23,401 nucleotides of DNA from a virus (taxonomy: Duplodnaviria; Heunggongvirae; Uroviricota; Caudoviricetes). Every line of letters begins with the position of its first letter. Within the stretch, counting starts at the first letter, position 1. The translations under genes and the position numbers were made by a program. The stretch is taken from IMG/VR virus record IMGVR_UViG_2667528074_000003, positions 1 to 23,401 of that record; one strand, written 5' to 3'. Under the pieces are notes generated by a model. The model was not told where the DNA came from. It ran no database searches and saw nothing but the letters and a program-made list of their open reading frames with translations. Positions 2,017 to 22,468 of this stretch are shown here, piece after piece.

Positions 2017-2285
2017 TTGTCGAAAGAAAAGAATACCCCCGTATTCCCTGAATAGATTGACTTTTTTATCCAACCATACTTCAGCGCACTGCGTTTAAAA
2101 AATGCTTCTTTCTTATGTGGAATATCATCATTTCATCATGATGTCTTTGATGAGCGGTGAACACAATACACTTGCGCTGTCTCTTCAGGATGAATCCCCT
2201 GGTCTGGTGCCTGTGGGCTGATGTTGCAGCAGAGCTAAGGTCGCTTAAACGCTACTCAGTATTCACTTTTCAGAGGATGAAATTT

Positions 2286-5200
2286 ATGAACAGGACCAGT
2301 CCCCATTATTGTCGCCGCTCAGTACTTTCCTTATTGATATCTGCCTTGATATATGCCCCGCCTGGGATGACGGCCTTCACTCCTGATGTTATTGGTGTGG
2401 TAAACGATGAGACTGTAGATGGCAGCCAAAGAGTAGATGAACGAGGTACAACAAATAACACTCATATTATCAACCATGGCCAGCAGAATGTTCATGGCGG
2501 GGTATCTAATGGAAGTCTTATTGAATCGGGTGGATATCAAGATGTAGGAAGTCATAACAATTTTGTGGGGCAGGCTAATAATACAACCATTAACGGAGGA
2601 AGACAGACAATTCATGACGGGGGCATTTCCACCGGTACGATAATCGACAGTGGCAATCAGGACGTTTATACAGGTGGTATCAGCAATGGAACGACAATTA
2701 AGGGTGGTAATTCACACATAAGTGGGGGGACTGCGAATGGAACCATCATTGATGGTGGAGGGCAGAAAGTAACAACTCAGGGGCATGTTGATGGTACAAC
2801 GATAAATAAGTCCGGTTATCAGGACATCACGCAAGGAAGTATTGCAACGAACACAATCATAAATGGTGGACGACAGTATGTTGAACAGAGCACAGTAGGA
2901 ACAACCACCATTAAAAATGGCGGTGAGCAAAGAGTATATGAAAGCCATGCGCTGGACACGACGATTGAAGGTGGAACTCAGTCTCTGAATAATAAGTCAA
3001 CGGCAAAAATACTCAGATCTATTCTGGTGGTACGCAAATTGTTGATTACACCAGCTCCTCGGATGTTATTGAAGTTTATTCCGGTGGCGTGCTTGATGTT
3101 AGTGGTGGTACGGCAACAAATGTTACCCAGCACGATGGTGCAATTTTAAAAACAAACACTAACGGTACGACGGTGAGCGGTACGAATAGTGAAGGTGCAT
3201 TCTCCATCCACAATCACGTGGCAGACAATGTGTTGCTGGAAAACGGTGGTCATTTAGACATAAACGCATATGGTTCGGCAAACAAGACGATTATTAAAGA
3301 TAAAGGAACAATGTCAGTTTTAACGAATGCTAAAGCTGATGCGACCCGAATAGATAACGGCGGGGTAATGGATGTTACCGGAAACGCGACCAATACCATA
3401 ATCAATGGTGGTACACAGAATATTAATAATCATGGTATTGCCACGGGTACCAATATCAACGGCGGAACGCAAAATATCAAGAGCGGCGGGAAAGCTGACA
3501 CGACAATTATATCCTCCGGGAGCCGGCAGGTTGTTGAGAAAGATGGTACGGCAACTGGCAGCAATATTAGCGCCGGAGGCTCGCTGATTGTCTATACCGG
3601 TGGTATTGCACATGGGGTTAACCAGGAGACGGGCAGTGCTTTAGTTGCCAACACGGGCGCAGGGACTGATATTGAAGGATACAACAAGCTCTCTCACTTC
3701 ACTATTACCGGAGGGGAGGCTAATTATGTTGTGCTGGAAAATACCGGCGAACTGACGGTAGTGGCTAAAACCTCGGCGAAAAATACTACCGTTGATGCTG
3801 GCGGTAAGCTGATTGTCCAGAAGGAGGCTAAAACAGATACCACCAGACTTAATAATGGTGGCGTTCTGGAGGTTCAGGACGGTGGTGAGGCTAAGCATGT
3901 TGAGCAACAATCCGGCGGCGCATTAATTGCTTCCACAACTTCCGGAACCCTTATCGAAGGAACCAACAGTTATGGTGATGCTTTCTACATCAGGAATTCA
4001 GAAGCTAAAAATGTAGTGCTGGAAAACGCTGGCTCATTAACAGTCGTCACTGGTTCCCGGGCAGTTGATACGATTATTAATGCCAACGGCAAAATGGATG
4101 TTTATGGAAAAGATGTTGGCACTGTACTCAATAGTGCTGGCACCCAAACAATATATGCCAGTGCCACTTCTGATAAAGCAAATATCAAAGGTGGCAAGCA
4201 AACGGTATATGGATTAGCCACTGAGGCAAATATCGAAAGTGGTGAACAAATTGTTGATGGTGGGTCAACAGAGAAAACACACATCAATGGTGGCACGCAA
4301 ACCGTTCAGAATTATGGTAAGGCAATCAATACCGATATCGTCTCTGGCCTACAACAAATTATGGCAAACGGGACAGCGGAAGGTTCCATTATTAATGGGT
4401 GTTCACAGGTAGTTAATGAGGGCGGTCTGGCTGAAAACTCGGTGCTTAATGACGGCGGCACACTCGATGTGCGGGAGAAAGGCAGCGCAACGGGGATACA
4501 GCAGAGTAGCCAGGACGCTTTGGTTGCAACCACCAGGGCGACGCGGGTCACAGGAACACGCGCGGATGGCGTCGCGTTCAGCATCGAGCAGGGTGCGGCG
4601 AACAATATCCTGCTGGCAAATGGCGGCGTGTTAACCATGGAGTCAGACACCTCTTCTGACAAAACACAGGTCAATACGGGCGGACGGGAGATCGTCAAAA
4701 CAAAAGCCACTGCGACAGGCACGACGCTCACCGGCGGCGAACAAATCGTCGAGGGGGTGGCGAATGAGACAACGATTAACGACGGCGGAATACAAACAGT
4801 TTCAGCTAACGGAGAGGCAATAAAAACAAAGATCAATGAAGGCGGTACGCTGACAGTTAACGATAATGGCAAAGCGACAGATATCGTCCAGAACAGCGGT
4901 GCCGCTCTCCAGACGAGCACGGCTAACGGTATTGAAATCAGCGGTACTCACCAGTACGGCACTTTTTCCATTTCCGGCAATTTAGCGACCAATATGTTGC
5001 TGGAAAATGGCGGTAATTTATTGGTATTAGCAGGTACCGAAGCTCGCGACTCCACGGTTGGCAGCGGTGGAGCCGCCAACGGCAGTTATCGCAGCAACGG
5101 GCTGGGCGGTCACATTGAAACCGGGATGCGATTTACCGATGGTAACTGGAACCTGACGCCGTATGCATCGTTAACGGGGGTTCACCGCTGATAACCCTGA

Positions 5201-5546
5201 ATATCATTTATCCAATGGCATGGAATCGAAATCAGTCGATACCCGCAGTTTATATCGTGAACTGGGTGCAACGCTGAGTTACAACATGCGTCTGGGGAAC
5301 GGTATGGAAGTTGAGCCGTGGCTGAAGGCGGCTGTGCGCAAAGAATTTGTCGATGATAACCGGGTGAAAGTGAATAGTGACGGTAATTTCGTCAATGATT
5401 TGTCGGGCAGACGTGGAATATACCAGGCAGGTATTAAAGCCTCATTCAGCAGTACGTTAAGCGGGCATCTTGGGGTGGGGTATAGCCATGGTGCCGGTGT
5501 GGAATCCCCGTGGAACGGGGTAGCTGGTGTGAACTGGTCGTTCTGA
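2286..5546 (+). pseudogene. AIDA-type autotransporter adhesin gene, disrupted by three homopolymer frameshifts and with a shortened beta-barrel domain
   Basis: RBS GAGGA then ATG 2286; signal-peptide-like N-terminus MNRTSPHYCRRSVLSLLISALIYAPPGMTA; long passenger of ~19-aa repeats (GGxQxVxxGGxAxxTxI); autotransporter C-terminus ending VAGVNWSF. Frame changes at A5 (3005-3009), and G5 (5176-5180); the barrel-like part is only ~150 aa. Confidence 0.6.
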
Positions 5547-5560
5547 CCATCAACGAAAAA

Positions 5561-5576
5561 GCCCACATCTGTGGGC
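5561..5576. terminator. hairpin after the autotransporter stop (GCCCACA..TGTGGGC) flanked by A5 and T3
   Basis: Inverted repeat 5561-5567/5570-5576, 15 nt after stop 5544-5546; short T tract, so terminator function is uncertain. Confidence 0.4.
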
Positions 5577-5706
5577 TTTCATGTCACCAGGAGCCGCGGC
5601 TCCTTTGCGTATCCTTTTATGTCTCTTCACCGTCTGGTCGGTGTCCTGCTGAGACTGCTAACTTCCTGTTTTTATTGGTGTTGTCCTTATACCGTCCAAT
5701 CATGAT

Positions 5707-5733
5707 TGGTGGAGCTGGCGGGAGTTGAACCCG
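5707..5733 (-). other. prophage attachment-site core: 27-nt copy of the 3' end of tmRNA (ssrA)
   Basis: Reverse complement reads CGGGTTCAACTCCCGCCAGCTCCACCA, which is a T-arm plus acceptor-3' strand plus CCA and matches the ssrA 3' terminus as I remember it. Not a complete RNA gene: the sequence beyond 5734 is unrelated. Integrase stop lies 133 bp away. Confidence 0.6.
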
Positions 5734-5865
5734 TGATCGGAATTCACATAGTTTATTGAATATGAACGATTTATTTTTTCACGCAAGGAATTATGTGCAT
5801 TTTACGTACATATTGTTGTCCCTGTAACGTCCTGATTCTGTACAATATTCTGAAATATTTTACCG

Positions 5866-7038
5866 TTACCGGGCTGCAGAAATCGCCGTTTTTCCATCGT
5901 ATTCTGCAAGGTAAGAGCCGTAATGTCTGAACAGCATTTCCGGTCCTTTGTGCCCCATCTGACCAGCCAGCCAGAACAGGTTAACGCCCTGGCTAATGTG
6001 CCGAGTGGCGAACGTATGGCGTGTCTGGTACGGATTGCGATAACGTACACCAGCCTTTTTAAGGGTCGGTACCCAGGCTTTTTTGCGGATCGCATCTGCG
6101 TTTGCCCAGGGAGCTCGAGTTTTCGGATCGCTGAATATGAAGTCGCTTTTTAGCGCCGTGTAGGGCTTTTGTGCCTGAAGAGCTACCAGCGCTTCGTTGT
6201 TCAGTTGTACTTTGCGAGTACCGGCTTTTGTTTTGGTACTTTTGATTACCCCGACTACGCTTGCAGTCTGGACATGTGCTGTGTTGCCGATGAAGTCTAT
6301 ATCTGTCCAGCGCAACGCGCACAATTCCGAGCTGCGTAGTCCGGTATTAAAGGCGAAACGAAACAGATTTTGCCATTCCGGGTAATGACAGGCGTCATAG
6401 ATTGCTGCTGTCTCTGCTGGCGTAAAAGGATCGACCTCGTAATCATCACTGCCTGGTGTGTTGTCCAATACGTGATACCGGCTGGCGCTGACCAGCGTGA
6501 CAGGATTTATTGTTAACAAACCATCGGTCACCGCTTCATCTATGGCGCTGCGCAGAAATGAAAGATTATTGCGGATCGTTTTCAGTTTTGTTTTTCTGCT
6601 GGCGATCCAGTTTTTGAGTACTGCAGGTGTCAGTTCTGATACATGAAATTTATGCAGTGCTGACAGTGCAGACAGGCATTTTTCATACCCTTTAATTGTC
6701 GATGGCGACAGGTTACGGTTCTGGCAGATAGTCAGGTATTCATCCAGGTAAGATTTTATATTTTTGTTTTTTTTCACTCCCCCGAACAGCTCCAGCTTTT
6801 GGGAGTTGGGGAAGTATTTTGCATATTCGAAGGTACCACCGATAATCTGATTTTTTATTTCTCCCAGCAGACGCTCGGCATACTTCACACCGCGCGCGTT
6901 TACTTCCATTCTGGAGAGGGGCTCCCGACACAGAACCCCTTTATATGTAAAAGTGATAACCAGAGTGCTACCAGTTTTATGCTGGCGAATAGTTACTCCT
7001 CTAGGGAGAGATAATGATCCTTGTTCTTTCTTGCCCAT
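5866..7038 (-). CDS. int: tyrosine site-specific integrase (lambda Int family)
   Basis: 390 aa; C-terminal catalytic region with RHTFATRHISQG and LAGQMGHKGPEMLFRHYGSY (conserved His/Arg and catalytic Tyr); GGAG RBS; adjacent to att core and transcribed toward it. Confidence 0.9.
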   Translation of the reverse strand: MGKKEQGSLSLPRGVTIRQHKTGSTLVITFTYKGVLCREPLSRMEVNARGVKYAERLLGEIKNQIIGGTFEYAKYFPNSQKLELFGGVKKNKNIKSYLDEYLTICQNRNLSPSTIKGYEKCLSALSALHKFHVSELTPAVLKNWIASRKTKLKTIRNNLSFLRSAIDEAVTDGLLTINPVTLVSASRYHVLDNTPGSDDYEVDPFTPAETAAIYDACHYPEWQNLFRFAFNTGLRSSELCALRWTDIDFIGNTAHVQTASVVGVIKSTKTKAGTRKVQLNNEALVALQAQKPYTALKSDFIFSDPKTRAPWANADAIRKKAWVPTLKKAGVRYRNPYQTRHTFATRHISQGVNLFWLAGQMGHKGPEMLFRHYGSYLAEYDGKTAISAAR

Positions 7039-7202
7039 TTTGAAATCTCCATTAAGTCGACCCAGCGTTCTTTAACTCCGTCGACTTTTAATACATGTAC
7101 CCCTTCTTTCCATATTCCTCTTTGTATCCGTTTGTTAACGGCATCAACCGTTTCTCCCGCGTCGCGGCAGTAGGTTGATATAGGTACGCAATCCAGCCCC
7201 AT
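6993..7202 (-). CDS. xis: excisionase-like small DNA-binding protein
   Basis: 69 aa, basic, directly upstream of and overlapping int by 46 nt; strong RBS GAGGTGA 5 nt before ATG 7202. Assignment by position and size, not by clear motif. Confidence 0.55.
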   Translation of the reverse strand: MGLDCVPISTYCRDAGETVDAVNKRIQRGIWKEGVHVLKVDGVKERWVDLMEISKWARKNKDHYLSLEE

Positions 7203-7360: not shown

Positions 7361-7603
7361 TTACTTCCTTTTCATGGCACGTAATTTTTTCAGATGAGCT
7401 TCCTGTTCTGTTTCTGCCAGAATTTGTCGGTATTCCTGGTGATCGATCCGTTCAAACGATTCATTAAAATCGTTCATTTTTACCGATTGTGTTTGCCCGT
7501 CCATTCTTCTGTACAACACGGTGTTGTTTATGTAGCGAACAATTTTTACCGGGTAACCGGCACTGTCGGTATACAGTTGTCCTTGATTAATCAGAGCGAA
7601 CAT
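7361..7603 (-). CDS. hypothetical protein (80 aa)
   Basis: Internal start of the 121-codon track ORF chosen because AGGAGA lies 6 nt upstream of ATG 7603; tightly packed with the flanking genes. Confidence 0.5.
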   Translation of the reverse strand: MFALINQGQLYTDSAGYPVKIVRYINNTVLYRRMDGQTQSVKMNDFNESFERIDHQEYRQILAETEQEAHLKKLRAMKRK

Positions 7604-7634
7604 TTTTTCTCCTGCTCTCTGAATAGTGAGAACT

Positions 7635-8018
7635 TCAGAGTCGTATGTTTGTAGCGGGTTTAATACTGATAATTTCTGCTGAGACAAGCATCCCGGCAAG
7701 CCAGAGCTCTCTGGACAGGTCTTCATCCTGGCATATCAGTTCGCCAATATTAATGGTGGCCATGATATCCGTTTCCCCAGTACGCTTATCCCTGACTTCT
7801 TCATAAGGTAGCGTTGCGTACAGGCTTTCAATAGCGCAACTGATAACATCCAGTCCGGTCAGATTGCCGCCGACAGTAACTTCGAATGTTTCGCGGTATT
7901 CCCATAGTCCGAAAGTTAATCGAACGGTTTGTTTTGCCATGCGTCCGCACGACGTCAGATTCGGGTCATAGTTCATTATTTTCGGTTGAGTATTCTGGTT
8001 GTTCATCTGATTTTTCAT
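7635..8018 (-). CDS. hypothetical protein (~127 aa; start uncertain)
   Basis: Track ORF 7635-8081 would overlap the SPFH gene by 35 nt, so the in-frame ATG at 8018 is preferred; no clear SD. A perfect 6-bp GC hairpin (8024-8039) lies just upstream. Confidence 0.4.
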   Translation of the reverse strand: MKNQMNNQNTQPKIMNYDPNLTSCGRMAKQTVRLTFGLWEYRETFEVTVGGNLTGLDVISCAIESLYATLPYEEVRDKRTGETDIMATINIGELICQDEDLSRELWLAGMLVSAEIISIKPATNIRL

Positions 8019-8046
8019 TAACCCGGCGGTTTGCCGGGCATATAAG

Positions 8047-8874
8047 TTATTTAATCTGGATAAATGGTGTATTGGCACCACTGGTCATGTATTGCGGCAG
8101 TGTACCGTTCCACTTGTTGATGGCTTCCAGTTCCATGACGCCTGGGTTCTGGCGCAGAGCTTCGCCGCGTAAACGAATGGCATCGGCTTCTGCCTGGGCT
8201 TTTGTACGAATCGCATCAGCCTGTCCGGCAGCTTCCGCGCGCAGCATGTTGGCTTCCGCTTCGCGCTGTTTTACTTCCTGCTCGCGTTGCAGGGTTTTCT
8301 GGTTCGCCGTGACTTTGGCATTAATGCTGTCGATAACGGTTGGCGGGTATTCCGGCTTACCCACATATGAGAGGCTCATTACCTGAATACCAATGGGTGT
8401 CATTTCTTCCTGAATGTCTTTGAGAGCTGCATCCAGAAGTTCAGACTTACCGCCGTCGATAAATTTGTCGGTGGTCATTTTGCTGGCCAGTCGGTTGAGT
8501 GCATCTGCGATCTTCTGGCGCAGGTCTGTGTCGGTAATGTCATCCACGCCTTTGCGGTAGGTCTGAAACACCGTGGTAACTTTGGATGGATCAACTTTGT
8601 AGGCCACACCGATGTGATAGCCGATGGTTGTACCGTCACTCATCTGGAAACTGAACGGTTCATCGTAGGTCTTCATTTGTTTGAAGGTGGGGAAGATATA
8701 AACTTCAGTATTCCAGCCAGTCCAGTAGCGACCAACACCGACCACCTCACCGACGCCTTTGTCGTCGCCCAGTTTATTTACCTTGATGCCAACATTACCT
8801 GGTTCAACGCGATCGCAACCGACAAGGCCAATGGTCGGAATAACAATGGCTAAAGCAAAAATAACTTTTTTCAT
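8047..8874 (-). CDS. SPFH/band-7 (stomatin-prohibitin-flotillin-HflK/C) domain lipoprotein
   Basis: 275 aa; N-terminal signal with lipobox (MKKVIFALAIVIPTIGLVGC); SPFH-like core; C-terminal Ala/Glu/Arg/Gln-rich coiled coil (QREQEVKQREAEANMLRAEAAGQADAIRTKAQAEADAIRLRGEAL); AAGGA RBS; ATGA overlap with the upstream gene. Confidence 0.8.
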   Translation of the reverse strand: MKKVIFALAIVIPTIGLVGCDRVEPGNVGIKVNKLGDDKGVGEVVGVGRYWTGWNTEVYIFPTFKQMKTYDEPFSFQMSDGTTIGYHIGVAYKVDPSKVTTVFQTYRKGVDDITDTDLRQKIADALNRLASKMTTDKFIDGGKSELLDAALKDIQEEMTPIGIQVMSLSYVGKPEYPPTVIDSINAKVTANQKTLQREQEVKQREAEANMLRAEAAGQADAIRTKAQAEADAIRLRGEALRQNPGVMELEAINKWNGTLPQYMTSGANTPFIQIK

Positions 8875-9059
8875 CTTTTATCCTTAGTGAAAGAAAGACC
8901 CTTGTAAATGGCATAAATGCAGGGCGGGGTCAGAAACGCCAGTGCAAAGCCGGAAATGACTGCTACCGTATCCTTCATGGATATAAGGAACGGGACGAGT
9001 AGTCCGTAAATGCATGCGATAATTGCCAGTAAAATTACTATTCTGAAATACAATCTCAT
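8871..9059 (-). CDS. small two-helix membrane protein, translationally coupled to the SPFH lipoprotein
   Basis: 62 aa with two hydrophobic stretches (IVILLAIIACIYGLLVPFLI and VISGFALAFLTPPCIYAIY); its stop overlaps the SPFH start (ATGA). Weak RBS. Confidence 0.55.
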   Translation of the reverse strand: MRLYFRIVILLAIIACIYGLLVPFLISMKDTVAVISGFALAFLTPPCIYAIYKGLSFTKDKR

Positions 9060-9203
9060 TGGTTTGTTGCATCCCGATATTTTTAACTGACTGACAGCGC
9101 AATAAAGAGAATAATGATTTCTGTTAGTGTCAGTACTGTGGCAAGGATTAAAAACAGTTTTACTCTGCTTAATTCACGGTTGCTTTTCATATAAACGGTT
9201 AGT

Positions 9204-9229
9204 AAAAAAACGGAAGAATTATATTCTTC
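9204..9229 (-). terminator. rho-independent terminator downstream of the 193-aa gene
   Basis: Minus strand reads GAAGAAT-ATA-ATTCTTC followed by CG and T7, beginning 8 nt after the stop at 9237. Confidence 0.5.
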
Positions 9230-9236
9230 TTAATAT

Positions 9237-9818
9237 TTAATGTGTCACTGGTGCTTCTGGTATACCATGAGTATTCAGATCGTGAATCATTTCATCCAGA
9301 AGGAGTTCAAGCCCTTCGCGCCCCATAGCAGAGACAATGAAGCCATTATCAGGATCTGCGATGAGCATTTTTTGATAGAGAAACAGAACTCGCCCCATGC
9401 CTTCATCTTCGCCATATTTTTCAATAAATCCCCATTCGACATGGTTTTGCAGGGCAATGCGAAGTGGCCCCGGGTATATACTCATACAACCATGCTTTCC
9501 CTTATAAATAACTGCGTGATCTGTGGTTCCGTTATCGTTAGGGATATCAATGGTACCGTTCTTGTTTTCCTCTTCACTGATAAACGTCGCCACATACAGC
9601 CAGCGCCATTGAGCAACCTTCATATCGACTGAAAATCTTCCCAGGAATCCGGCATCATCGGCTTCTGCAATACATTGCATGATTCTTAAACCGTGCCAGC
9701 ATGGATTGTCGTACTCACCATCATTAAGACGCTGTACGGCCTCAACATAATCAATGGTTGTACTGTCAATTTTTATGCCATGAGCTGTCGCTTCTGGTTT
9801 GAATTCAAAATTGTTCAT
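9237..9818 (-). CDS. hypothetical protein (193 aa), downstream member of an overlapping two-gene unit
   Basis: ATG 9818 preceded by AAGGAA; start overlaps the stop of the upstream 72-aa ORF (ATGA); no recognisable domain. Confidence 0.6.
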   Translation of the reverse strand: MNNFEFKPEATAHGIKIDSTTIDYVEAVQRLNDGEYDNPCWHGLRIMQCIAEADDAGFLGRFSVDMKVAQWRWLYVATFISEEENKNGTIDIPNDNGTTDHAVIYKGKHGCMSIYPGPLRIALQNHVEWGFIEKYGEDEGMGRVLFLYQKMLIADPDNGFIVSAMGREGLELLLDEMIHDLNTHGIPEAPVTH

Positions 9819-10033
9819 AATGTTTGTTCCTTTGCTGGTGGAATAATCGTGTAACCCGCTCTTTTTGCCATCCACAGAAATGTATCCATGCAACCAACGA
9901 ATTCATTATCCAACAGATGTTTTGAGTAAATCACTTTCCCATTTTCAATGGTCAACAACACTCTTACTTTTTCGTGTATTACCCCCCCCTGCTCAGGCTC
10001 ATTCTGCATTTTATTTCGTGCTGATGTCTCCAT
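9815..10033 (-). CDS. hypothetical protein (72 aa), upstream member of the overlapping two-gene unit
   Basis: ATG 10033 preceded by GGGAGA at 8 nt (the track start at 10048 is an alternative); stop overlaps the next start. Confidence 0.55.
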   Translation of the reverse strand: METSARNKMQNEPEQGGVIHEKVRVLLTIENGKVIYSKHLLDNEFVGCMDTFLWMAKRAGYTIIPPAKEQTL

Positions 10034-10231: not shown

Positions 10232-10597
10232 TTATTGCGCTAATTCTTTTTCGGCAGCAGCATTTGCATATTCACATGCAAAATTCAGAATTTCGCTGCC
10301 AAGTGTTTTTGTTTCATGATTACTGGACATATGTAATACCTGTGTTGCATGCAATAAATGATAAACATTGACCGCAAATGAATCAGGTTCCAGACAAATG
10401 CCTTCATAATCATCTTGCTGTGAGGTTGTTTCTGTCATTGTTCCCGAAGTACATGCGAACCTGTTTTTGACAATACTCTTTCCTCTAATCACTATATCGG
10501 CAACATCTATTGCTTTTATAACCTCCGGGAGAAATTCCTGGTTTGTATAATCAAACTCATCAACACAGAGAACGGTTATGTTTTCGAACTTTTTCAT
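10232..10597 (-). CDS. hypothetical protein (121 aa) whose C-terminal ~65 aa are paralogous to the N-terminal domain of the upstream 153-aa HTH protein
   Basis: ATG 10597 overlaps the stop of gene 10594-11055 (ATGA). Shared block: DSFAVNVYHLLHATQVLHMSSNHETKTLGSEILNFACEYANAAA versus DSFALNIANLLSAVRTFHLLDCARSKELGIEVMEFIHEYALSAA. Confidence 0.6.
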   Translation of the reverse strand: MKKFENITVLCVDEFDYTNQEFLPEVIKAIDVADIVIRGKSIVKNRFACTSGTMTETTSQQDDYEGICLEPDSFAVNVYHLLHATQVLHMSSNHETKTLGSEILNFACEYANAAAEKELAQ

Positions 10598-11055
10598 GCG
10601 CAAGTATCTCCAGCTGTTGGTTTACCGGTTAACAGCCACATCGGATCGCAACCAAGAACATTTGCCAGCGGGATAAGCATACTGATAGTTGGTTCATACT
10701 CTCCGCTCTCCCACTGGATGATGATATCTTCATCGAGATCGAGCAGACTGGCGAGTTCGGCTGTTGTTAAGCCGCAGGCTTCGCGTTGGGTGCGAAGGTT
10801 AACCAGCCAGCTTTTAGGGAAGGATTGTTTTTGTTGTGCAGGAGAAGCCGCAGATAGAGCATATTCATGGATAAATTCCATTACCTCAATGCCCAGTTCC
10901 TTTGAGCGAGCACAATCCAGAAGATGGAATGTGCGTACAGCACTTAGCAAATTTGCAATATTTAATGCAAAGGAATCAAGTTCTAAGCCCTTAAGCGTAA
11001 CACAGCCGCAGTTGATAAAATTAGTTGTTTCTGGAGTTGCGTTTAGTGTCTTCAT
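10594..11055 (-). CDS. two-domain regulator: N-terminal domain of unknown function plus C-terminal XRE-type helix-turn-helix
   Basis: 153 aa; C-terminal HTH LRTQREACGLTTAELASLLDLDEDIIIQWESGEYEPTISMLIPLANVLGCDPMWLL; first gene downstream of the pL-like promoter; RBS GGTGGA. Confidence 0.65.
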   Translation of the reverse strand: MKTLNATPETTNFINCGCVTLKGLELDSFALNIANLLSAVRTFHLLDCARSKELGIEVMEFIHEYALSAASPAQQKQSFPKSWLVNLRTQREACGLTTAELASLLDLDEDIIIQWESGEYEPTISMLIPLANVLGCDPMWLLTGKPTAGDTCA

Positions 11056-11200: not shown

Positions 11201-11890
11201 CTAACCAAATCTGTTTATATTGAATGGTACTGATGAGATCACTTTAGACTGGATATAAAGCAGAGCTAACCCCTCTTTTTCGATGCTCCATGGTTGATAA
11301 TTGGGGTTATCAGATAACACCATGATTTTGCTTCCAATTTTTTGAAGTCTTTTCACGTAGCATTCTCCATCAAAACAAAATGCATAAATGCCATCGCCAT
11401 CAAAATAAGTTACTGTCTTATCAAGAAAAAGAAGGTCGCCAGGTGAGATTGTGGGAGCCATACTGTCTCCTCTGGCGTTGCCTATTTCTATATTTTTAAA
11501 TGCTCGGTTTCCAACAAGACGACGGGCATATTCAGGATCAAGTTCTATTGAGCGTACTACATCTATAAAGTCTCCGCGGACATGGGTCCCATTACCGCAA
11601 CTAAATTCAACGTCAAGTACATTAAACACGACGCTATCTGTTCTTGCCTGATGTTTCTCTTGCGAAGAGAAGGTTGGTGAGGTGTCTTCACCTAAGAACC
11701 AGGATTGTGGATAACCGCTAATCTCTGATAACTGCGCAAGCTTATCGCTCCGTGGAAATGTTTTTCCTGTGGTCCAGTACTGCACTGATTGCGCACTCAC
11801 CCCCAGCTTACGGGCCAGCTGAGCCTGAGTCCATCCTTTTGCTTTCAGCATTGCGGCTATTCTATTTTCTGTGTTTTTGACGTTCTTCAT
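11201..11890 (-). CDS. cI: CI-type prophage repressor (N-terminal HTH plus C-terminal S24/LexA-like autopeptidase)
   Basis: 229 aa; HTH WTQAQLARKLGVSAQSVQYW; S24 motifs GDSMAPTISPGD (Ser nucleophile) and CYVKRLQK (Lys); divergent from a cro-like gene. Confidence 0.85.
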   Translation of the reverse strand: MKNVKNTENRIAAMLKAKGWTQAQLARKLGVSAQSVQYWTTGKTFPRSDKLAQLSEISGYPQSWFLGEDTSPTFSSQEKHQARTDSVVFNVLDVEFSCGNGTHVRGDFIDVVRSIELDPEYARRLVGNRAFKNIEIGNARGDSMAPTISPGDLLFLDKTVTYFDGDGIYAFCFDGECYVKRLQKIGSKIMVLSDNPNYQPWSIEKEGLALLYIQSKVISSVPFNINRFG

Positions 11891-12023: not shown

Positions 12024-12296
12024 ATGAAAGGAAATGATTACGACGAACTTCGTGCATTAATTGCGCAAAATGCCATAGCGCGAAATCTTGGTGTGACACC
12101 GCAAGCGGTGAATCAGTGGTTTTCAAAAAGCACAATTCCTGCTCGTTTCGTTTTACGGGTATGTGAGGTGGTTGCATGGAAGGTTACGCCTCATGGCTTA
12201 AGGCCAGATCTTTACCCTCACCCTGAAGATGGAATTCCTGATTCGTTACGCAAAACATCAAATCCAAGCTTAGCGCACACGGGGGAGGGGAGGTAA
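12024..12296 (+). CDS. cro: Cro-like small HTH regulator (YdaS/Cro type)
   Basis: 90 aa, divergent from cI; HTH-like LGVTPQAVNQWF; RBS GGTGA 6 nt upstream. Confidence 0.7.
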   Translation: MKGNDYDELRALIAQNAIARNLGVTPQAVNQWFSKSTIPARFVLRVCEVVAWKVTPHGLRPDLYPHPEDGIPDSLRKTSNPSLAHTGEGR

Positions 12297-13129: not shown

Positions 13130-13441
13130 ATGCTTAACATTAGCAGCACTCAAAAATTAGTCAACCCTTCAGATCCTGTTGGACAAATTCCGGTCGAACA
13201 GTGGTACAGAAGAACGTACGTGGTTTCAGAGTACGCCCGCACTTATACCGAGACAATTATCGGAAAGGCCAAATGCCCCTGTTCCGCAGCTGTGAATGGT
13301 GCGATGGCAATACGTAACGCCAATCCTTCGGTTTTATCCATCCGTTTTATAAGTATTGAGCAGCTTTCTCCTGAAGAAGGAGAGGCCAGCGAGCGCGCCC
13401 TTAACGCCTGGTTTGAGAAACATCCTGAGGAGATTGAATGA
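13130..13441 (+). CDS. hypothetical protein (103 aa) coupled to the downstream Rha-like gene
   Basis: ATG 13130 (the track TTG at 13124 is less likely); stop overlaps the ATG of gene 13438-14148. Confidence 0.5.
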   Translation: MLNISSTQKLVNPSDPVGQIPVEQWYRRTYVVSEYARTYTETIIGKAKCPCSAAVNGAMAIRNANPSVLSIRFISIEQLSPEEGEASERALNAWFEKHPEEIE

Positions 13442-14148
13442 TGAACACCGCAATTTTTAACGACAAAGTATCCATGACCAGCGTTGAAATCGCAGAGCTG
13501 GTTGGAAGTCAACACGGCAATGTCAGAATATCAATAGAGCGTCTGGCAAAACGCGGGGTGATTCAACTTCCTGCAATGCAAAAAGTTGAGAACGAACAAT
13601 CATTTAGCCAAAACAAATTCACAAACGCATATATTTTCGAAGGCGAACAAGGCAAACGCGACAGCATCATTGTCGTCGCACAACTTTGCCCGGAATTCAC
13701 TGCCCGCCTGGTAGATCGTTGGCGCGAACTGGAAGAGCAGGTGCGCAAACCAATGAGCGAAATCGAAATGGTTGCCGCGATGGCTCTTGAAGTAGTTCGT
13801 CAGCAAAAACGCCTCGACAAGATGGAAGAAAAAGTTAGCCACGTTGCCGAAACTGTCGAACAAATCAAAAGAGGCACCATACGCGATGGTTATGCAGGAT
13901 ACCGTCAGCTGGTGGCGAAAACAGGTATGTCAGATGCTAAATGCCGCAATCTGGTGAACGCATATCAGATCCCTACCGACACCCATGAATTTATGACGCC
14001 AGACGGATTATTGTCTCGTCGCGCGATTGTTGCAGTAGAACCCTTCATGTTTGCTTTTCATCGCATGATGAGTGAAGCAGAACCACGAGGTACTCGCTGG
14101 TATCACCCGAAAATGGGCCTGTTTCAGGCGCTGGGCTGGCAGGTGTAA
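13438..14148 (+). CDS. phage regulatory / antirepressor-like protein with N-terminal Rha-type DNA-binding region
   Basis: 236 aa; N-terminal MTSVEIAELVGSQHGNVRISIERL ... RWRELEEQ resembles the N-terminus of phage Rha/antirepressor proteins as I recall them; C-terminal half unassigned. Confidence 0.65.
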   Translation: MMNTAIFNDKVSMTSVEIAELVGSQHGNVRISIERLAKRGVIQLPAMQKVENEQSFSQNKFTNAYIFEGEQGKRDSIIVVAQLCPEFTARLVDRWRELEEQVRKPMSEIEMVAAMALEVVRQQKRLDKMEEKVSHVAETVEQIKRGTIRDGYAGYRQLVAKTGMSDAKCRNLVNAYQIPTDTHEFMTPDGLLSRRAIVAVEPFMFAFHRMMSEAEPRGTRWYHPKMGLFQALGWQV

Positions 14149-14362
14149 TTATGCTCACAGGTAACACATGCAAGTACTCAATCGCTGGTTCCGCGATGGC
14201 AGAGGGCGTCGCGTCCACGTTATACACTGGGAGTCTGAAACACAGCGGGTCATTTACCTGCGTGATGGTTATTCGCATGAATGCTTCAGTCCGTTGTGGT
14301 TGTTTCGTCGTGATTTTGTGGAGTGTGAAGCGCCGCCAGAGTGACGGCGTAATGGTGGAAAC

Positions 14363-14671
14363 TTACACGAAGCGGATCTGGAGTTTTTTTCCTGTTGCGC
14401 GGGCAAATTTTTTCAGTGTGGAAAATGATGGTCCACTGACACCTGACGCCAGATTACTTTCCATTCTGCTGATGACAGTTGCTTTGGTTCCCATACGCTC
14501 AGCGATCTCAGCTTGGGTTAAACCAGCTTCTTTACGTGCTGCCAGCATTTCATCAAGCAACGCAAATTCGTCGGCGATGGCGTCGTATTCTGCTTTAAAA
14601 GCTGGATCCTCCATCCATTTATCAGCCATTTCATCATGTGTAATGGTTGGCGGATTACGTTTACCAGTCAT
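14363..14671 (-). CDS. HigA-like antitoxin (XRE HTH)
   Basis: 102 aa with HTH GLTQAEIAERMGTKATVISRMESN; immediately downstream of and overlapping (11 nt) the toxin gene, the toxin-first order typical of HigBA modules. Confidence 0.8.
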   Translation of the reverse strand: MTGKRNPPTITHDEMADKWMEDPAFKAEYDAIADEFALLDEMLAARKEAGLTQAEIAERMGTKATVISRMESNLASGVSGPSFSTLKKFARATGKKLQIRFV

Positions 14672-14990
14672 GCTTTACCTCCTTCATTCTGGTTTCAGCT
14701 TTTTGGCGTTCGGCTGGTGGGGTTTTCTGGGTCTTCTTGATGAAACTATGCAGCATGATGATGCGTTTTCCTGCCAGGGTGCAGTAAAAGACGCGTGCGA
14801 TGCCATCACTACCTTTAATCCGAAGCTCGAAAAGCCCGTTACCGAAAGCACTGGTATGAGGTTCTCCGAGATTGCTGCCGTATACCTTCATGCGTTCAAC
14901 AAGATGCTGGTATCGGGCACGCATACTCAATGGAAGCTGGTCGACCTCCAGCCTGACCTCTTCACTGTAGTATTCGATAGTGTAGTTCAT
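14661..14990 (-). CDS. HigB/RelE-superfamily toxin (phage gp49-like mRNA interferase family)
   Basis: 109 aa; characteristic motifs NGLFELRIKGSDGIARVFYC and IMLHSFIKKTQKTP. Confidence 0.8.
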   Translation of the reverse strand: MNYTIEYYSEEVRLEVDQLPLSMRARYQHLVERMKVYGSNLGEPHTSAFGNGLFELRIKGSDGIARVFYCTLAGKRIIMLHSFIKKTQKTPPAERQKAETRMKEVKHDW

Positions 14991-14996
14991 GAGTTA

Positions 14997-15020
14997 AAAC
15001 ATAACAAAATGGTTATGTTT
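14997..15020. promoter_or_regulatory. palindromic operator candidate upstream of the toxin gene
   Basis: Perfect 9-bp inverted repeat AAACATAAC-N6-GTTATGTTT ending 7 nt before the toxin start codon; overlapped by a TTGTGC-17-TATGTT promoter-like element on the minus strand. Confidence 0.4.
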
Positions 15021-15671
15021 GCACAATATATTGATTCTGCAATTTCGGGACGTTACACTGTTCCAGCACCTTATAAAGCGGGTGCCGGGATTTGCACCCC
15101 GGAATTGCATACGGCGATATATGACGCGCCAGCGTCTTTTTTATCGTCCGCGCTCACGCACGCCAGAATTATGGTGGGCTGGGTAGGGGAGCCGAAAGGC
15201 TCGCCGGTTTCCGTATGCGCCGGTAGTGCAAACCCTGTTCAGTCCGCCACCAGCGAGATTTGCACCTCCGGTGGTGGAAGTTATCCATTGCATACGGAGG
15301 CTGCCATCATGGCTACAGTCCCAACTTCCCCATTCCTCAAAATTGAGATCGTCAACGGTAAGGCCGTTATTTTTTCCCTGCATGTTGCCTGCCACTTCAA
15401 GCGCATGCACCAGAACATCGTTGACAAAATCGAGTATCTGAACTGCTCGCGTGAATTTTTTACCCGCAATTTCATTCCGGGTACTTATCACATCTATGGT
15501 GACTCTCTGCGTGGTTATTACATCACCCTTGATGGTCTGATGATGCTTCAGCTTGGGTTAAGTCTGCGCACAATGCGGTACTACGAGAGCTGTATTGATG
15601 CATTCCATGAAGCTGAAACCGTCCAGGTACATTCCGCTTTCCGTCGTCATCAACGGGAGGTGCACCTATGA
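15009..15671 (+). CDS. Rha-domain phage regulatory protein, tandem paralog 1 (start uncertain)
   Basis: C-terminal ~110 aa carry a Rha-like winged-helix pattern (SLHVACHFKRMHQNIVDKIEYL ... YYITLDGLMMLQLGLSLRTMRYYESCIDAFHEAE). ATG 15009 has no SD; an internal ATG at 15309 has a GGAGG RBS. The frame stays open upstream only because it is antisense to the TA genes. Confidence 0.55.
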   Translation: MVMFAQYIDSAISGRYTVPAPYKAGAGICTPELHTAIYDAPASFLSSALTHARIMVGWVGEPKGSPVSVCAGSANPVQSATSEICTSGGGSYPLHTEAAIMATVPTSPFLKIEIVNGKAVIFSLHVACHFKRMHQNIVDKIEYLNCSREFFTRNFIPGTYHIYGDSLRGYYITLDGLMMLQLGLSLRTMRYYESCIDAFHEAETVQVHSAFRRHQREVHL

Positions 15672-16333
15672 TCCGCTACCTGAATATTGATTCTGCACTT
15701 TTGGAACGTTACACTGTCTCTGCACCTTATAAAGCGGGTGCCGGGCGTGGAAACCCGAAATTCAATATAGAGCACAACCGCGCTCATGCGGTTTTTTCGT
15801 GTCATGAGCATTGCTACGCCCAAATTATGGTGGGGCGTGCAGGGCCAACTTCGGTTGGGCCGGGTTCTATGTTGACCGGTATTTCCACCCCTGTACGTCT
15901 CACCACCTATATGGTCGTGGAAAGCCTTGGTGGTGAGTTCTTTGAATTCAACATAGGGGCTGTCACCATGACTACCACCACTACCCACCCATTCCTCAAA
16001 ATTGAGATTATTAACGGTAAGGCCGTTATTTTCTCCCTGCATGTAGCCTGCCATTTCAAGCGCATGCACCAGAACATCGTCGACAAAATCGAGTACCTGA
16101 ACTGCTCGCGCGAATTTTTCACCCGCAATTTCATACCGGGTACTTATCACATCTATGGTGACTCTTTGCGAGGTTATTACATCACCCTTGATGGCCTGAT
16201 GATGCTTCAGCTTGGGTTAAGTCTGCGCACAATGCGGTACTACGAGAGCTGTATTGAAGCATTCCATGAGGCAGAAACCAGCGTGAATCATACCGCTTTT
16301 CGCCGTAATCAATGGGAGGCGCGCCATGTGTAA
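15668..16333 (+). CDS. Rha-domain phage regulatory protein, tandem paralog 2
   Basis: 221 aa; ATG overlaps the stop of paralog 1 (ATGA) and is preceded by GGGAGGTG; the C-terminal domain is nearly identical to paralog 1 with mostly synonymous differences. Confidence 0.65.
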   Translation: MIRYLNIDSALLERYTVSAPYKAGAGRGNPKFNIEHNRAHAVFSCHEHCYAQIMVGRAGPTSVGPGSMLTGISTPVRLTTYMVVESLGGEFFEFNIGAVTMTTTTTHPFLKIEIINGKAVIFSLHVACHFKRMHQNIVDKIEYLNCSREFFTRNFIPGTYHIYGDSLRGYYITLDGLMMLQLGLSLRTMRYYESCIEAFHEAETSVNHTAFRRNQWEARHV

Positions 16334-20051: not shown

Positions 20052-20294
20052 ATGACTTTTACCCCTGAACAATTACGTAAACAGGCACAGGAAATGTTGC
20101 GACAAGCGGAACAACTGGAAAAAACAGGTGTAACAAAAGATACCATTCGTCGGGATATGGTTCCCGCGCTCAGAGAATTGATGCAGGCGAAACACCGTGC
20201 ACAAAAAGCGGTGGATGAGCTGGTGGATTGTGTGGCAGAGCTGGAAACCAAAGTTGGAAAGTTTGAAAAACTGGTGCATGAGGTGCTGCGCTGA
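20052..20294 (+). CDS. hypothetical small helical protein (80 aa)
   Basis: ATG 20052 (track TTG at 20037 overlaps the helicase stop); stop overlaps the ATG of the next gene; weak RBS. Confidence 0.45.
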
Positions 20295-21961: not shown

Positions 21962-22468
21962 CACGAACCCTTTTTTTTGAACTATTTTTAAAAAATGATG
22001 TCACTGCGCGATAAATATTCATCTAATCAATGTGGTTATTTCAAGAGTCAAGTTTAATTTAGTGATTGATAATATGATCAAGATCTCATTTATGCGCGTT
22101 GGTATAATTTGTTGATATTTTTGTGTAATGCGGAATTTAATTAATGAAATACATTATTTACTCATTTTTCATTGAAAAATAACAATGATGTATTTGATGT
22201 AATATGTGTTATTCGTATGTTTTGTTTTGTTATATTGCATTAACATTTGAGTGGCGTATTTGTGGTTTACGTACGTAAAAATTCAATTATGATGTTAAGA
22301 GTGGTTGCTTCGACTCCTTCCTTAAAACCGCCGTCGGGCTGTTTTTTGTACCCGAAAAACGGCACAGGACGTTAAACGTGCTGGTGGTTGCGAATACTGG
22401 TCTTTCAGCTTGCTGGCTTTTTCGACAAGAGTTATTGGTATGTCACGTTAACCAGAAAGGAAAAAGAC

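Follow-up and report, generated by a model that had tools for sequence, protein, structure and literature searches.

Two bacterial systems stand closest to the gene pair described here. HflK/HflC of E. coli (PDB 7vhq, 7wi3, 9cz2), an SPFH cage around FtsH, likewise joins an SPFH fold to a long helix and stands on the periplasmic face of the membrane. The qmcA-ybbJ operon (SPFH-NfeD; PDB 8z5g) likewise couples an SPFH gene, through a 4-nt overlap in E. coli, to the gene of a small multi-helix membrane protein, and the partner lies inside the cage. In phages, many genome papers mention SPFH genes briefly and none accounts for them; according to a 2026 paper (PMC13239085), the reason 'remains unclear'. 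Within the literature searched, an experimental phenotype is described for one phage-borne SPFH protein only, PM0222 (Pmorf0222) of Pasteurella multocida, an HflK/C-like protein of a prophage island that is reported to act on the animal host, with effects on mouse virulence and activation of TLR1/2 (PMC9872710). We found no characterised phage function, exclusion role or defence role of SPFH proteins in this literature, in agreement with the original prediction, which knew of no SPFH-based exclusion or anti-phage module.

The stretch of DNA analysed here, 23,401 nt in length and referred to as the window, carries an E. coli phiP27-like prophage. On its minus strand, a gene for a 62-aa two-helix protein is tightly coupled to a gene for a 275-aa SPFH lipoprotein (Table 1). 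The pair sits between xis/int and the CI/Cro region, in the leftward early region of a lambdoid prophage. With the integrase, excisionase, CI-like and Cro-like genes placed, the location between xis and the immunity region that the original prediction had given is borne out, as are the two proteins themselves and their translational coupling through an ATGA read on the minus strand. The GC content of the SPFH gene (49-52%) exceeds that of the neighbouring genes (37-45%), a difference typical of an acquired accessory gene and compatible with a moron.

Table 1. Features of the locus and its prophage setting, in window coordinates.
Feature	Position	Strand	Basis or remark
Integrase	5866-7038		
Excisionase	6993-7202		PHROG 2917, 1e-40
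Stable GC-rich stem-loop, no U-run	8015-8045	-	Right after the SPFH stop codon; -14.5 kcal/mol, z = -3.2
275-aa SPFH/Band-7 lipoprotein gene	8047-8874	-	Pfam PF01145; PHROG 200 'lipoprotein', 2.7e-114
Predicted signal peptide and lipobox, MKKVIFALAIVIPTIGLVGC	8815-8874	-	Translation; Cys20 codon 8815-8817
ATGA overlap of hairpin stop codon and SPFH start codon	8871-8874	-	Plus strand t-c-a-t; ATG 8874-8872, TGA 8873-8871
62-aa hairpin inner-membrane protein gene	8871-9059	-	ORF; PHROG 1130 'membrane protein', 7.9e-24
Shine-Dalgarno AAGGA of the SPFH gene	8881-8885	-	In the hairpin gene's 3' end, 6 nt ahead of the ATG; read from the sequence
35-aa single-helix ORF, unannotated; candidate third cassette member	9083-9190	-	23 nt upstream of the hairpin gene
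CI-like repressor	11201-11890		
Cro-like gene	12024-12296		

The SPFH protein begins MKKVIFALAIVIPTIGLVGC-DR, with a lipobox, Cys20 and an aspartate at position +2. Its signal sequence, MKK-VIFALAIVIPTIG-LVGC, comprises a positive N-region, a hydrophobic core and a lipobox near residue 20 (criterion [LVI][ASTVI][GAS]C), which fits a lipoprotein, and lipidation is predicted. Pfam PF01145 is matched at 108.3 bits (cut-off 23.6, E = 6.1e-31) over profile positions 2-176 of 176. The AlphaFold2 monomer model (pLDDT 79, pTM 0.56) comprises an alpha/beta core followed by a 65-residue helix, residues 178-242, as expected from the SPFH core and long helical tail that had been read from the sequence. 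A short helix comes next, and the C-terminus carries a conserved KW(N/D)GxLP...PF motif. Residues C20, W255, G257 and P260 are invariant in the alignment of homologues, and the lipobox cysteine is kept in 12 of 12 diverse homologues. Among close homologues the +2 residue is Asp in 104 of 109 and Glu in 5 of 109. Asp at +2 is the classical inner-membrane retention signal in Enterobacteria. In many distant homologues the residue after the lipobox cysteine is not Asp, with T, S and A common, so that inner-membrane retention is secure only for the enterobacterial branch and the fused forms.

By Foldseek, the top PDB matches of the model are protomers of HflK/C, prohibitin, erlin, stomatin, flotillin and QmcA(-YbbJ), with near full-length alignments of about 240-300 columns and E-values from 3e-13 to 1e-7. 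The protein is not an orthologue of HflK, HflC, QmcA or FloT; orthology to a housekeeping SPFH protein with a known role is what the original prediction had named as speaking against an undescribed system. Its NCBIfam scores fall far below the equivalog cut-offs for HflC (TIGR01932, 25.5 against 134.4 bits) and HflK (TIGR01933, 23.4 against 159.4 bits), and orthology to QmcA or FloT was rejected, the likeness to QmcA being that of generic SPFH proteins (profile match, 95% probability). Beyond the 'lipoprotein' and 'membrane protein' families, the PHROG scan gave two unknown families and a marginal 'protease' family (E = 8e-4). The labels 'putative serine protease' (phiP27 L05 and others), 'putative transposase' and 'peptidyl-tRNA hydrolase' found on phage SPFH homologues are treated here as probable legacy misannotations, Pfam and NCBIfam giving SPFH-type matches only.

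The 62-aa protein has hydrophobic helices at about residues 1-29 and 31-51, connected by a short, conserved loop, LVPFLISMKDT, that is predicted to be periplasmic. Within the family alignment, the proline of the motif PxL(I/V)S is invariant. On average, the N-tail has 1.5 lysine plus arginine residues, the loop 0.4 and the C-tail 3.6, and the predicted topology is N-in/C-in. No Pfam family matches the protein. Of the two profiles that the original prediction had proposed to search for, Band_7/SPFH is thus present in its partner and NfeD is absent by Pfam from both. We ruled out an NfeD identity for the hairpin, since Pfam NfeD was absent in eight family members and hhalign against E. coli YbbJ gave a probability of 0.9%; at 62 aa, the protein is also too short to hold an NfeD (OB-fold) domain.

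For the present analysis, we delimited the module as a hairpin protein of PHROG 1130 and an SPFH protein of PHROG 200, the former encoded just ahead of the latter or fused to it. Here, a two-helix protein with PxL(I/V)S lies upstream of an SPFH protein with KW(D/N)GxLP. A hairpin HMM, with a best unrelated score of 14.7 bits against 16-77 bits for true matches (1.27 million residues, six-frame flanks), finds a match immediately ahead of the SPFH gene in 62 of 79 species-representative genomes of bacteria and is positive in 10 of 16 diverse phage loci. The hairpin gene ends at the SPFH start in all 80 closely related viral contigs (80/80), and the intergenic gap in homologous pairs is mostly -4 to about +12 nt. 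Such pairing is evidently far beyond chance, and the co-occurrence as a unit that the original prediction had proposed to check is clear.

Several apparent exceptions to this pairing were traced. Two further species representatives, L098 and L099 from E. coli/Shigella, keep the hairpin as a remnant about 770 bp upstream, displaced by an insertion, and their SPFH signal peptide is replaced. In the P1-like MH445380, the hairpin gene is there and unannotated. Among close relatives, 33 hairpin matches were 'partial'; 30 of these, in viral contigs, reflect BLAST end-trimming of a divergent 5' end, with the hairpin gene still ending at the SPFH start, and the other three are the displaced L098/L099 remnants and a more divergent Pantoea copy (L101).

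The two proteins also occur as one polypeptide. In-frame fusions matching the hairpin HMM were found in 17 of 150 family representatives (50% identity), with the hairpin N-terminal of the SPFH domain in 16 and C-terminal in P0197. Twenty extended sequences that we read run from the hairpin through a third hydrophobic segment, usually with a lipobox-like cysteine, into the SPFH domain; this cysteine is invariant in 16 aligned fusions, and the AlphaFold2 model of one fused form has three helices followed by the SPFH domain. Some apparent fusions could be gene-calling artefacts in which the true SPFH start is internal. The order of hairpin, third segment and SPFH domain implies that the hairpin is C-in and that the SPFH domain would be periplasmic, on the inner membrane. 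Judged from these sequence comparisons, the two genes make up a membrane module that is self-contained and moves horizontally, and nearly every genome with this SPFH subfamily has them side by side.

An all-against-all BLAST of the neighbourhoods of 27 loci revealed no third gene conserved with the pair across lineages, the shared elements being the pair itself and antisense shadow ORFs. The N4 gp18-type exclusion protein and a 54-aa ORF of AV124, considered as third members, were rejected, as they are not shared among the 27 loci and the PHROG assignments of the neighbours differ. The 35-aa ORF upstream of the hairpin gene, with one predicted hydrophobic segment, is intact in 50 of 51 related loci, where substitutions are mostly conservative; in the remaining locus the start codon is changed to ATA (Ile). 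It had no match in PHROG, Pfam or PADLOC searches and was not found beside the pair in the distant phages whose neighbourhoods were compared. Its membership of the module is uncertain.

The pair is found in a wide range of replicons. In phiP27, the SPFH protein (L05) is 98% and the hairpin 97% identical to those of the window, the upstream hairpin ORF being unannotated there. Strictly lytic phages with the pair include N4, the Vequintavirinae, the jumbo phage Munch and Agrobacterium OLIVR6; N4 gp20 is 62% identical to the SPFH protein and is preceded by the gp19 hairpin with an 8-nt overlap. At about 79% identity, the pair occurs on P1-like plasmids and on plasmids of roughly 106-112 kb, including Y. 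pestis plasmids; we take the latter size class to be SSU5/pMT1-type phage-plasmids. It is widespread among lytic phages of plant-associated, soil and aquatic bacteria, and Dyella, which is free-living, has it too.

In two genera the chromosomal setting is that of a stable locus. The Dyella pair is flanked by a BlaR1/BlaI-like pair and nrdB/nrdA, a synteny that holds in at least 13 species, about half of which have a hemerythrin gene separating the pair from nrdB. In Leptospira, the pair adjoins sdhA/sdhB-like genes (succinate dehydrogenase/fumarate reductase-type) in seven genomes. We regard these copies, from their conserved non-phage synteny, as cellular orthologues, a pattern unlike that of a dedicated defence gene. 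The position given by the original prediction, the lambdoid early-left region, is right for the pair here; the pair is not specific to prophage accessory regions or defence islands, given the copies in lytic phages, plasmids, Dyella and Leptospira.

On the minus strand at 9060-9240, a crude consensus scan found no promoter-like (sigma-70-like) site for the pair; such a search could miss a promoter ahead of the 35-aa ORF that is weak or not of the sigma-70 type. With no promoter of its own detected, there is no sign that the lysogen expresses the pair. Upstream of the pair is a weak hairpin with a U7 run. A promoter-like site with a 10-of-12 match is found at 11137-11109, just after a terminator-like site at 11189-11173. 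The pair appears to be an internal gene unit of the leftward early operon, which would run from near 11137-11109 to xis and int. Lying inside this operon, the pair would be made after induction or infection and not in the quiescent lysogen. No canonical terminator was called after 8047 by the terminator scan, and the stem-loop that follows the SPFH stop codon could be a transcript-stabilising or pausing element.

Our preferred reading, to which we assign a probability of roughly 55%, is that, during lytic growth, the two proteins assemble an SPFH scaffold against the inner membrane, on its periplasmic face. It would be an auxiliary copy of a membrane-organising device of cells and not a dedicated anti-phage system. 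The hairpin would reside in the inner membrane with both ends cytoplasmic and its PxLISxxDT loop at the periplasmic surface. The SPFH lipoprotein would be exported, lipidated at Cys20 and, owing to Asp+2, kept at the inner membrane. Its long helix and C-terminal tail would mediate oligomerisation into a ring or cage, as in all solved SPFH proteins. Standing on the periplasmic face, on the same side as HflK/C and opposite to QmcA-YbbJ, the cage would enclose a membrane patch containing hairpin subunits. We infer the cage from homology and a moderate-confidence monomer model. The output may be that the inner membrane of the infected cell is compartmentalised or stabilised, or that a host inner-membrane client is corralled, to the benefit of the phage; either form of this output, membrane organisation or client sequestration, is generic. 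We further speculate, with considerable doubt, that the pair could be an ancient, hitherto unrecognised two-component caging device captured by many phage lineages to wall off inner-membrane patches from the periplasmic side, against competing phage DNA entry or membrane-targeting abortive-infection effectors and premature holin action. If true, such a device would explain how common SPFH genes are in phage genomes.

Superinfection exclusion, or anti-phage defence more broadly, is a possible role for the pair, though in our judgement an unlikely one. The SPFH assembly and hairpin would here block the entry of incoming DNA, or adsorption-linked steps, at the inner membrane and so protect the lysogen or infected cell. 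T4 Imm/Sp and P22 SieA, small phage-made inner-membrane or periplasmic proteins that act at the inner membrane, are the models; the parallel is a functional analogy only, as the PHROG scan, which matched families 200 and 1130, detected no sequence relationship of these proteins to the pair and no exclusion family of the Imm, Sp, Sie, Cor or Llp types. The location in a non-essential early-left region of a temperate phage is favourable, as is a predicted position at the inner membrane and periplasm, the site of DNA entry, and E. coli shows a patchy distribution, with 545 positives among 5426 genomes. The N4 pair comes after gp18, which belongs to PHROG 1510 ('superinfection exclusion'), and an SPFH gene of the Vi01-like phage PhiSH19 adjoins an annotated exclusion gene (PMC3220722); however, a gp18-like gene is not conserved with the pair elsewhere. 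Copies in lytic phages weaken the defence reading that the original prediction had offered, although those in N4 and the Vequintavirinae do not contradict it, since virulent phages encode exclusion too. It is weakened further by the PADLOC-DB 2.0 search, in which no model was matched at E 0.1 or better by the pair and its neighbours (7361-9893), by the lack of a detected promoter that would indicate lysogen expression, and by the core-like synteny of the Dyella and Leptospira pairs, whose neighbours are nrdAB or sdh genes and which lie outside defence islands. Nor did the literature searched link SPFH proteins to phage exclusion. Nothing that we found marks the pair as an anti-phage defence system.

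Somewhat less probable again is mimicry of HflK/C, in which the phage SPFH protein would replace or compete with HflK/C around FtsH, altering the turnover of CII/CIII/Xis-type regulators, LpxC and sigma-32 and thereby adjusting envelope synthesis or the choice between lysis and lysogeny. By sequence, no solved structure is closer than HflK (E = 2e-4); HflK/C 7vhq is the top Foldseek match (E = 3e-13), HflC and HflK are the best NCBIfam matches, and the predicted membrane side agrees. In Gekk3-15 the annotation is 'putative FtsH membrane protease modulator', and the idea has been raised for the Burkholderia phage CSP3 (PMC10269572). However, the NCBIfam scores given above exclude orthology, the likeness is confined to the generic SPFH2/coiled-coil region common to all family members, and prohibitin, erlin and stomatin are nearly as good by fold. 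Strictly lytic phages, which have no lysogeny decision to tune, also carry the pair, and partner and anchor both differ between HflK/C and the phage protein, as set out below.

We consider it very improbable that the lipoprotein serves lysogenic conversion or virulence, exposed or shed (for example in outer-membrane vesicles) and acting on an animal host as reported for PM0222. In its favour, TLR2 is generically activated by lipoproteins, and the phiP27-like prophage, related to the Stx-type phage phiP27, resides in a pathogenic-type E. coli. A prophage-island SPFH protein is described as contributing to mouse virulence (PMC9872710). Such an activity, however, does not explain why lytic phages of plant-associated, soil and aquatic bacteria, and the free-living genus Dyella, have copies; Asp+2 predicts inner-membrane retention and not surface exposure, and a membrane role inside the cell is what the obligatory hairpin partner in the inner membrane and the fusions speak for.

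N4 is well known to lyse its host very late, which could favour a scaffold that restrains or organises holins or spanins in the inner membrane. That such delay of lysis is the function is scarcely plausible: the distant Kayvirus SPFH gene mbpS and its holin-like one-helix neighbour mbpV do lie beside the endolysin gene lysK (PMC7150955), but that pair lacks the hairpin family, the pair studied here is among early or middle genes in the present prophage, N4 and the other Gram-negative phages examined, no lysis genes are among its immediate neighbours in the stretches examined, and its cellular orthologues are in non-phage loci.

The present analysis adds three elements. A specific hairpin membrane protein accompanies a large branch of phage SPFH genes, as a partner or in fusion; the predicted place of the assembly is the inner membrane, on its periplasmic side; and the pair is also a conserved chromosomal locus in Dyella and Leptospira. 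A vague annotation becomes a defined two-gene system, with N4 gp19/gp20, phiP27-like prophages, and P1-like and presumed ~106-112 kb phage-plasmids as models. Should phage entry, the integrity of the membrane or a host protease turn out to be under its control, the module would represent a new and widespread phage-host interface; should it have only a subtle fitness effect, it would be one more uncharacterised accessory gene.

Compared with described systems, HflK/HflC is the best match among solved structures by both sequence and fold, at an identity of only 16-18%. It is anchored by an N-terminal transmembrane helix, in contrast to the predicted lipid anchor of the phage protein, and forms a hetero-oligomer of two paralogues without a hairpin partner. 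With qmcA-ybbJ, the phage pair shares the logic of a scaffold and a membrane-embedded partner; unlike in that operon, the partner gene comes first and the partner has neither an NfeD/OB-fold domain nor detectable similarity to YbbJ, so that a partner type other than NfeD is added to those described for SPFH proteins. The cytoplasm is the side that QmcA faces, whereas the phage SPFH protein is a predicted exported lipoprotein. In Staphylococcus Kayvirus (MbpV/MbpS; PMC7150955) and other Gram-positive or archaeal phages, an SPFH protein is likewise encoded beside a small membrane protein, but identity is only 24-26% and the Kayvirus neighbour is a one-helix protein outside the hairpin family (HMM scores of 3 bits or less). 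The phiP27 L05 protein with its upstream ORF, N4 gp19/gp20, and PHROG 200 with PHROG 1130 are identical to the present pair in architecture and gene order, and by this comparison the pair is another copy of known phage homologues, with nothing different in kind.

The module comprises two translationally coupled genes, one for a 62-aa protein whose two hydrophobic helices flank the loop ISMKDT (hereafter the hairpin) and one for a 275-aa SPFH lipoprotein. The Shine-Dalgarno sequence of the SPFH gene, AAGGA, lies within the small gene, 6 nt upstream of the ATG. The SPFH protein opens with a textbook lipobox, MKKVIFALAIVIPTIGLVGC followed by DR, and matches Pfam Band_7/SPFH at 6.1e-31. Its AlphaFold2 model (pLDDT 79, from a 33-sequence alignment) comprises, in order, an alpha/beta core, a single 65-residue helix (residues 178-242), a short helix and a low-confidence tail. 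The original prediction had described overlapping genes for a two-helix protein and an SPFH lipoprotein, and the ORFs, ATGA overlap, lipobox, Pfam match and model agree with it in every detail. The hairpin gene is preceded, at a distance of 23 nt, by an unannotated ORF whose 35-aa product has one hydrophobic helix. Of 51 related loci, 50 keep this ORF intact, with mostly conservative substitutions, and the remaining one has ATA (Ile) where the start codon should be; the ORF has no family match in Pfam, PHROG or PADLOC and is probably a real gene for a small membrane protein. The cassette of this ORF and the pair is flanked by two stem-loops, one GC-rich and stable without a U-run (-14.5 kcal/mol, z = -3.2), the other AT-rich and weak with a following U7 (-4.9 kcal/mol); a terminator scan made no canonical call at either.

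The window is a prophage of E. coli. It matches strain 2013C-3264 at 99.6% identity over 1.7 kb, and in that strain the prophage adjoins ypjA and a tRNA-Ile gene. In the host flank, AIDA-repeat autotransporter adhesin ORFs (YpjA/EhaD-like) are broken up between two or more reading frames, which fits the pseudogene annotated in this near-identical strain. The immunity region has a CI-like repressor and a divergent Cro-like gene. Leftward from it, after a terminator-like and then a promoter-like site, come two HTH/CII-like genes, several uncharacterised genes (PHROG 340, PHROG 1515), the 35-aa ORF and the pair, and beyond it DUF5406, DUF4222, a 48-aa ORF, an excisionase (PHROG 2917, 1e-40) and an integrase. 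Since a crude scan of the coding strand gave no promoter-like site just upstream of the pair, we read it as an internal member of a leftward early operon; because the SPFH gene is richer in GC than its flanks, and the scan was crude, the pair may still have an independent promoter. Two adjacent, overlapping early-left genes have a common N-terminal region and are both matched by PHROGs 5451 and 4587, the second also carrying an HTH_3 domain and matching PHROG 4836 'CII-like regulator'; the two resemble the product of a partial tandem duplication within the regulatory region. Anti-repressor-type regulators stand in tandem in an unusual array of three successive genes with Rha and/or Ash domains (236 aa, Rha; 506 aa, Ash and Rha; 221 aa, Ash and Rha). 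The prophage also carries a general porin gene (Pfam Porin_1, 8e-152), shortly downstream of the intact gene for the Q antiterminator, an order that resembles the lysogenic-conversion arrangement of the Lc/NmpC type; the annotation of strain 2013C-3264 has a frameshift in Q, with different genes after it.

Features of the window discussed in the text.
Feature	Coordinates	Strand	Remark
Hairpin gene, 62-aa ORF	8871-9059	-	ORF translation
SPFH gene, 275-aa ORF	8047-8874	-	ORF translation
ATGA overlap	8871-8874	-	large-gene ATG over small-gene TGA; plus strand reads t-c-a-t
35-aa ORF	9083-9190	-	
GC-rich stem-loop	8015-8045	-	3' of SPFH stop codon
AT-rich stem-loop and U7	9203-9229	-	3' of upstream PHROG 1515 gene
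Overlapping early-left gene, first	10232-10603	-	
Overlapping early-left gene, second	10594-11055	-	
Promoter-like site	11137-11109		leftward, after terminator-like site; 10-of-12 match
Terminator-like site	11189-11173		leftward, past CI-like repressor
CI-like repressor	11201-11890		
Cro-like gene	12024-12296		divergent from CI-like repressor
Rha/Ash genes	13438-16333	+	
Q antiterminator gene	20294-20677	+	
Porin gene	20858-21964	-	
Adhesin ORFs (host flank)	2157-5191	+	

Relatives of the SPFH protein occur in 763 phage records. Temperate carriers include phiP27, other Stx phages and P1-like elements; strictly virulent ones include N4, Vequintavirinae (AV124, pEa_SNUABM_55), jumbo phage Munch, Aeromonas Gekk3-15, Burkholderia vB_PR1, Agrobacterium OLIVR6 and Sinorhizobium phiM6; at greater distance there are Caulobacter phages, Staphylococcus K, Enterococcus EF24C and haloviruses. 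The phiP27 pair shows 97-98% protein identity to that of the window, and N4 gp20, an SPFH homologue (62% identity), is preceded with an 8-nt overlap by gp19, a 68-aa two-helix protein. The window locus is one more copy of a sequence already brought to light by the sequencing of phiP27 and N4. Translated upstream ORFs of diverse phages yielded the same kind of protein as the hairpin, with the loop motif G-x-x-x-P-x-L-(I/V)-S-A-x-(D/S)-T and an invariant Pro. In public records the hairpin gene is unannotated in P1-like MH445380 (3784-4020) and phiP27 AJ298298 (5816-6004), and homologous SPFH genes bear misleading names: 'putative serine protease', 'putative transposase', 'peptidyl-tRNA hydrolase' and 'protein QmcA'. 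The RefSeq label is already 'SPFH domain-containing protein'.

By an HMM built from 23 hairpins and used on three data sets, a hairpin was found directly upstream of the SPFH gene in 62 of 79 species-representative bacterial loci (16-77 bits); the best unrelated score, in a control of 1.27 million residues of six-frame flanking translation, was 14.7 bits. Two more loci, L098 and L099, have the hairpin moved ~770 bp away by an insertion. The other 15 gave no match: 14 are Bacteroidota or unclassified loci of the same kind, with SPFH identity of only 30-39%, and in one (L165) the contig stops short of the upstream region. Among close viral relatives, the hairpin gene ends at the SPFH start in 80 of 80. 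Co-occurrence of the two genes as a unit, which the original prediction had left to be checked, is borne out by these counts; a neighbourhood comparison of 27 loci found no third gene accompanying the pair. In L098 and L099 (~5030-6000), which represent the species Shigella flexneri and E. coli, the insertion separates a truncated hairpin gene from an SPFH gene whose signal peptide is swapped for MKKVIPALALVLLTTGLVGC; this widespread variant is cluster P0001, with 1366 member sequences, and its module appears to be decaying or rewired. Ahead of more distant SPFH lipoprotein genes lie a 116-aa three-helix protein in Caulobacter phage Ccr29 (1631-1981) and a 72-aa one-helix protein in Pseudomonas FBPa29 (1722-1940), neither matched by the hairpin HMM, which suggests that the partner was replaced while the order of small membrane protein, then SPFH, persists.

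Across 1.84 billion representatives, a full HMMER scan gave 223 clusters at E <= 1e-30 and 970 at E <= 1e-10. Among the best 150, 17 match the hairpin HMM; 16 of these run from an N-terminal hairpin through a third hydrophobic segment, which usually bears a lipobox-like Cys, to the SPFH domain, and in P0197 the hairpin is C-terminal. One fusion, modelled by AlphaFold2, shows three helices and then the SPFH fold. As Rosetta-stone evidence, the fusions argue that the two proteins act together, and from them we infer a cytoplasmic hairpin C-terminus and a periplasmic SPFH domain with its anchor in the inner membrane. The charge distribution of the hairpin (mean K+R: N-tail 1.5, loop 0.4, C-tail 3.6) and Asp at lipobox position +2 agree with this predicted topology. 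Position +2 is Asp in 104 of 109 close homologues and Glu in the other five; Asp+2 is often missing in distant homologues. Under the classical +2 rule, Asp+2 leads to inner-membrane retention in Enterobacteria, so retention of the SPFH lipoprotein is predicted. The lipobox-like Cys is invariant across 16 aligned fusions (including P0188, P0193, P0196, P0206, P0208 and P0209). Signal peptidase II may cut these into two polypeptides, or the true SPFH start may be internal, in which case some fusions may be gene-calling artefacts.

The region was found in 545 of 5426 complete E. coli genomes, and 198 of the 635 places where it occurs are plasmid-borne. PLSDB carrier plasmids are mostly non-mobilisable (628 of 672); one class is 94-98 kb, P1-like, with ~92% identity, and another is 106-112 kb with ~79% identity, which we take to be SSU5/pMT1-type phage-plasmids. 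There are 64 Yersinia carrier plasmid records, and two Y. pestis plasmids among the records listed are 96-101 kb. In at least 13 Dyella species the pair occupies the same syntenic position, flanked by a BlaR1/BlaI-like pair and by nrdB/nrdA; about half of these species have a hemerythrin gene separating it from nrdB. The neighbours of the pair in seven Leptospira genomes are succinate dehydrogenase/fumarate reductase-type genes. This core-like, non-phage placement, together with strictly lytic carriage and the lack of a PADLOC match, argues for an ancestral role in cellular membrane physiology, captured repeatedly by phages. The same observations point away from a dedicated anti-phage system, although phages could still use the pair for superinfection exclusion. 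For the reading first proposed, superinfection exclusion or defence, we found no positive evidence, nor, in the literature searched, anything relevant linking SPFH to anti-phage activity, defence or exclusion; a 2026 report (PMC13239085) calls the reason for the presence of the SPFH gene 'unclear', suggesting adsorption or DNA entry. We consider superinfection exclusion or defence unlikely.

We favor, at roughly 55%, a mobile two-gene module whose products, the hairpin and a lipoprotein retained at the inner membrane, would together assemble into an SPFH ring or cage on the periplasmic side of that membrane. In the window prophage, the pair would be expressed as part of the leftward early operon once induction or infection has taken place, and the cage would organize or stabilize the membrane or corral an inner-membrane client. 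The analysis establishes the domain identities, the coupling, the conserved pairing, the fusions and the non-phage orthologues; lipidation, topology, oligomerisation, expression timing and output are inferred. The best Foldseek matches are HflK/C, prohibitin, erlin, stomatin, flotillin and QmcA-YbbJ protomers and major vault protein, all of which build rings or cages. The nearest solved structure by sequence is HflK, at an E of only 2e-4. Mimicry of HflK/C acting on FtsH is a doubtful reading; an HflC-like phage gene that might drive lysogeny has been reported (PMC10269572). The protein is not an HflC or HflK orthologue, scoring 25.5 and 23.4 bits in NCBIfam against cut-offs of 134.4 and 159.4. 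The literature searched held no characterized function for a phage SPFH gene; genome papers mention the gene and either speculate about its role or call it unclear. Also reported there are the MbpS/MbpV pair of Kayvirus (PMC7150955) and the detection of a few peptides in crude-lysate or virion preparations. A virulence or lysogenic-conversion lipoprotein is very improbable; Pasteurella PM0222, a prophage-island SPFH protein, is linked to virulence and TLR1/2 activation (PMC9872710), the one phenotype found for such a protein in that literature. Control of lysis timing we likewise hold to be a slim prospect.

The hairpin-SPFH module is real, widespread and offers good experimental handles. Four aspects appear undescribed so far: an obligate hairpin partner, the occurrence of fusions, the predicted periplasmic inner-membrane placement and the cellular orthologues. 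The partner is not an NfeD protein. The profile search that the original prediction proposed for NfeD as partner type came back negative: eight hairpin members had no Pfam match, and hhalign against E. coli YbbJ gave a probability of 0.9%. The logic nonetheless resembles the SPFH-NfeD arrangement, in which a scaffold gene is coupled to the gene for a small partner in the membrane, and differs from it in partner family, gene order, lipid anchor and membrane side; partner, fusions, placement and cellular orthologues together define a non-NfeD variant of SPFH-partner systems.
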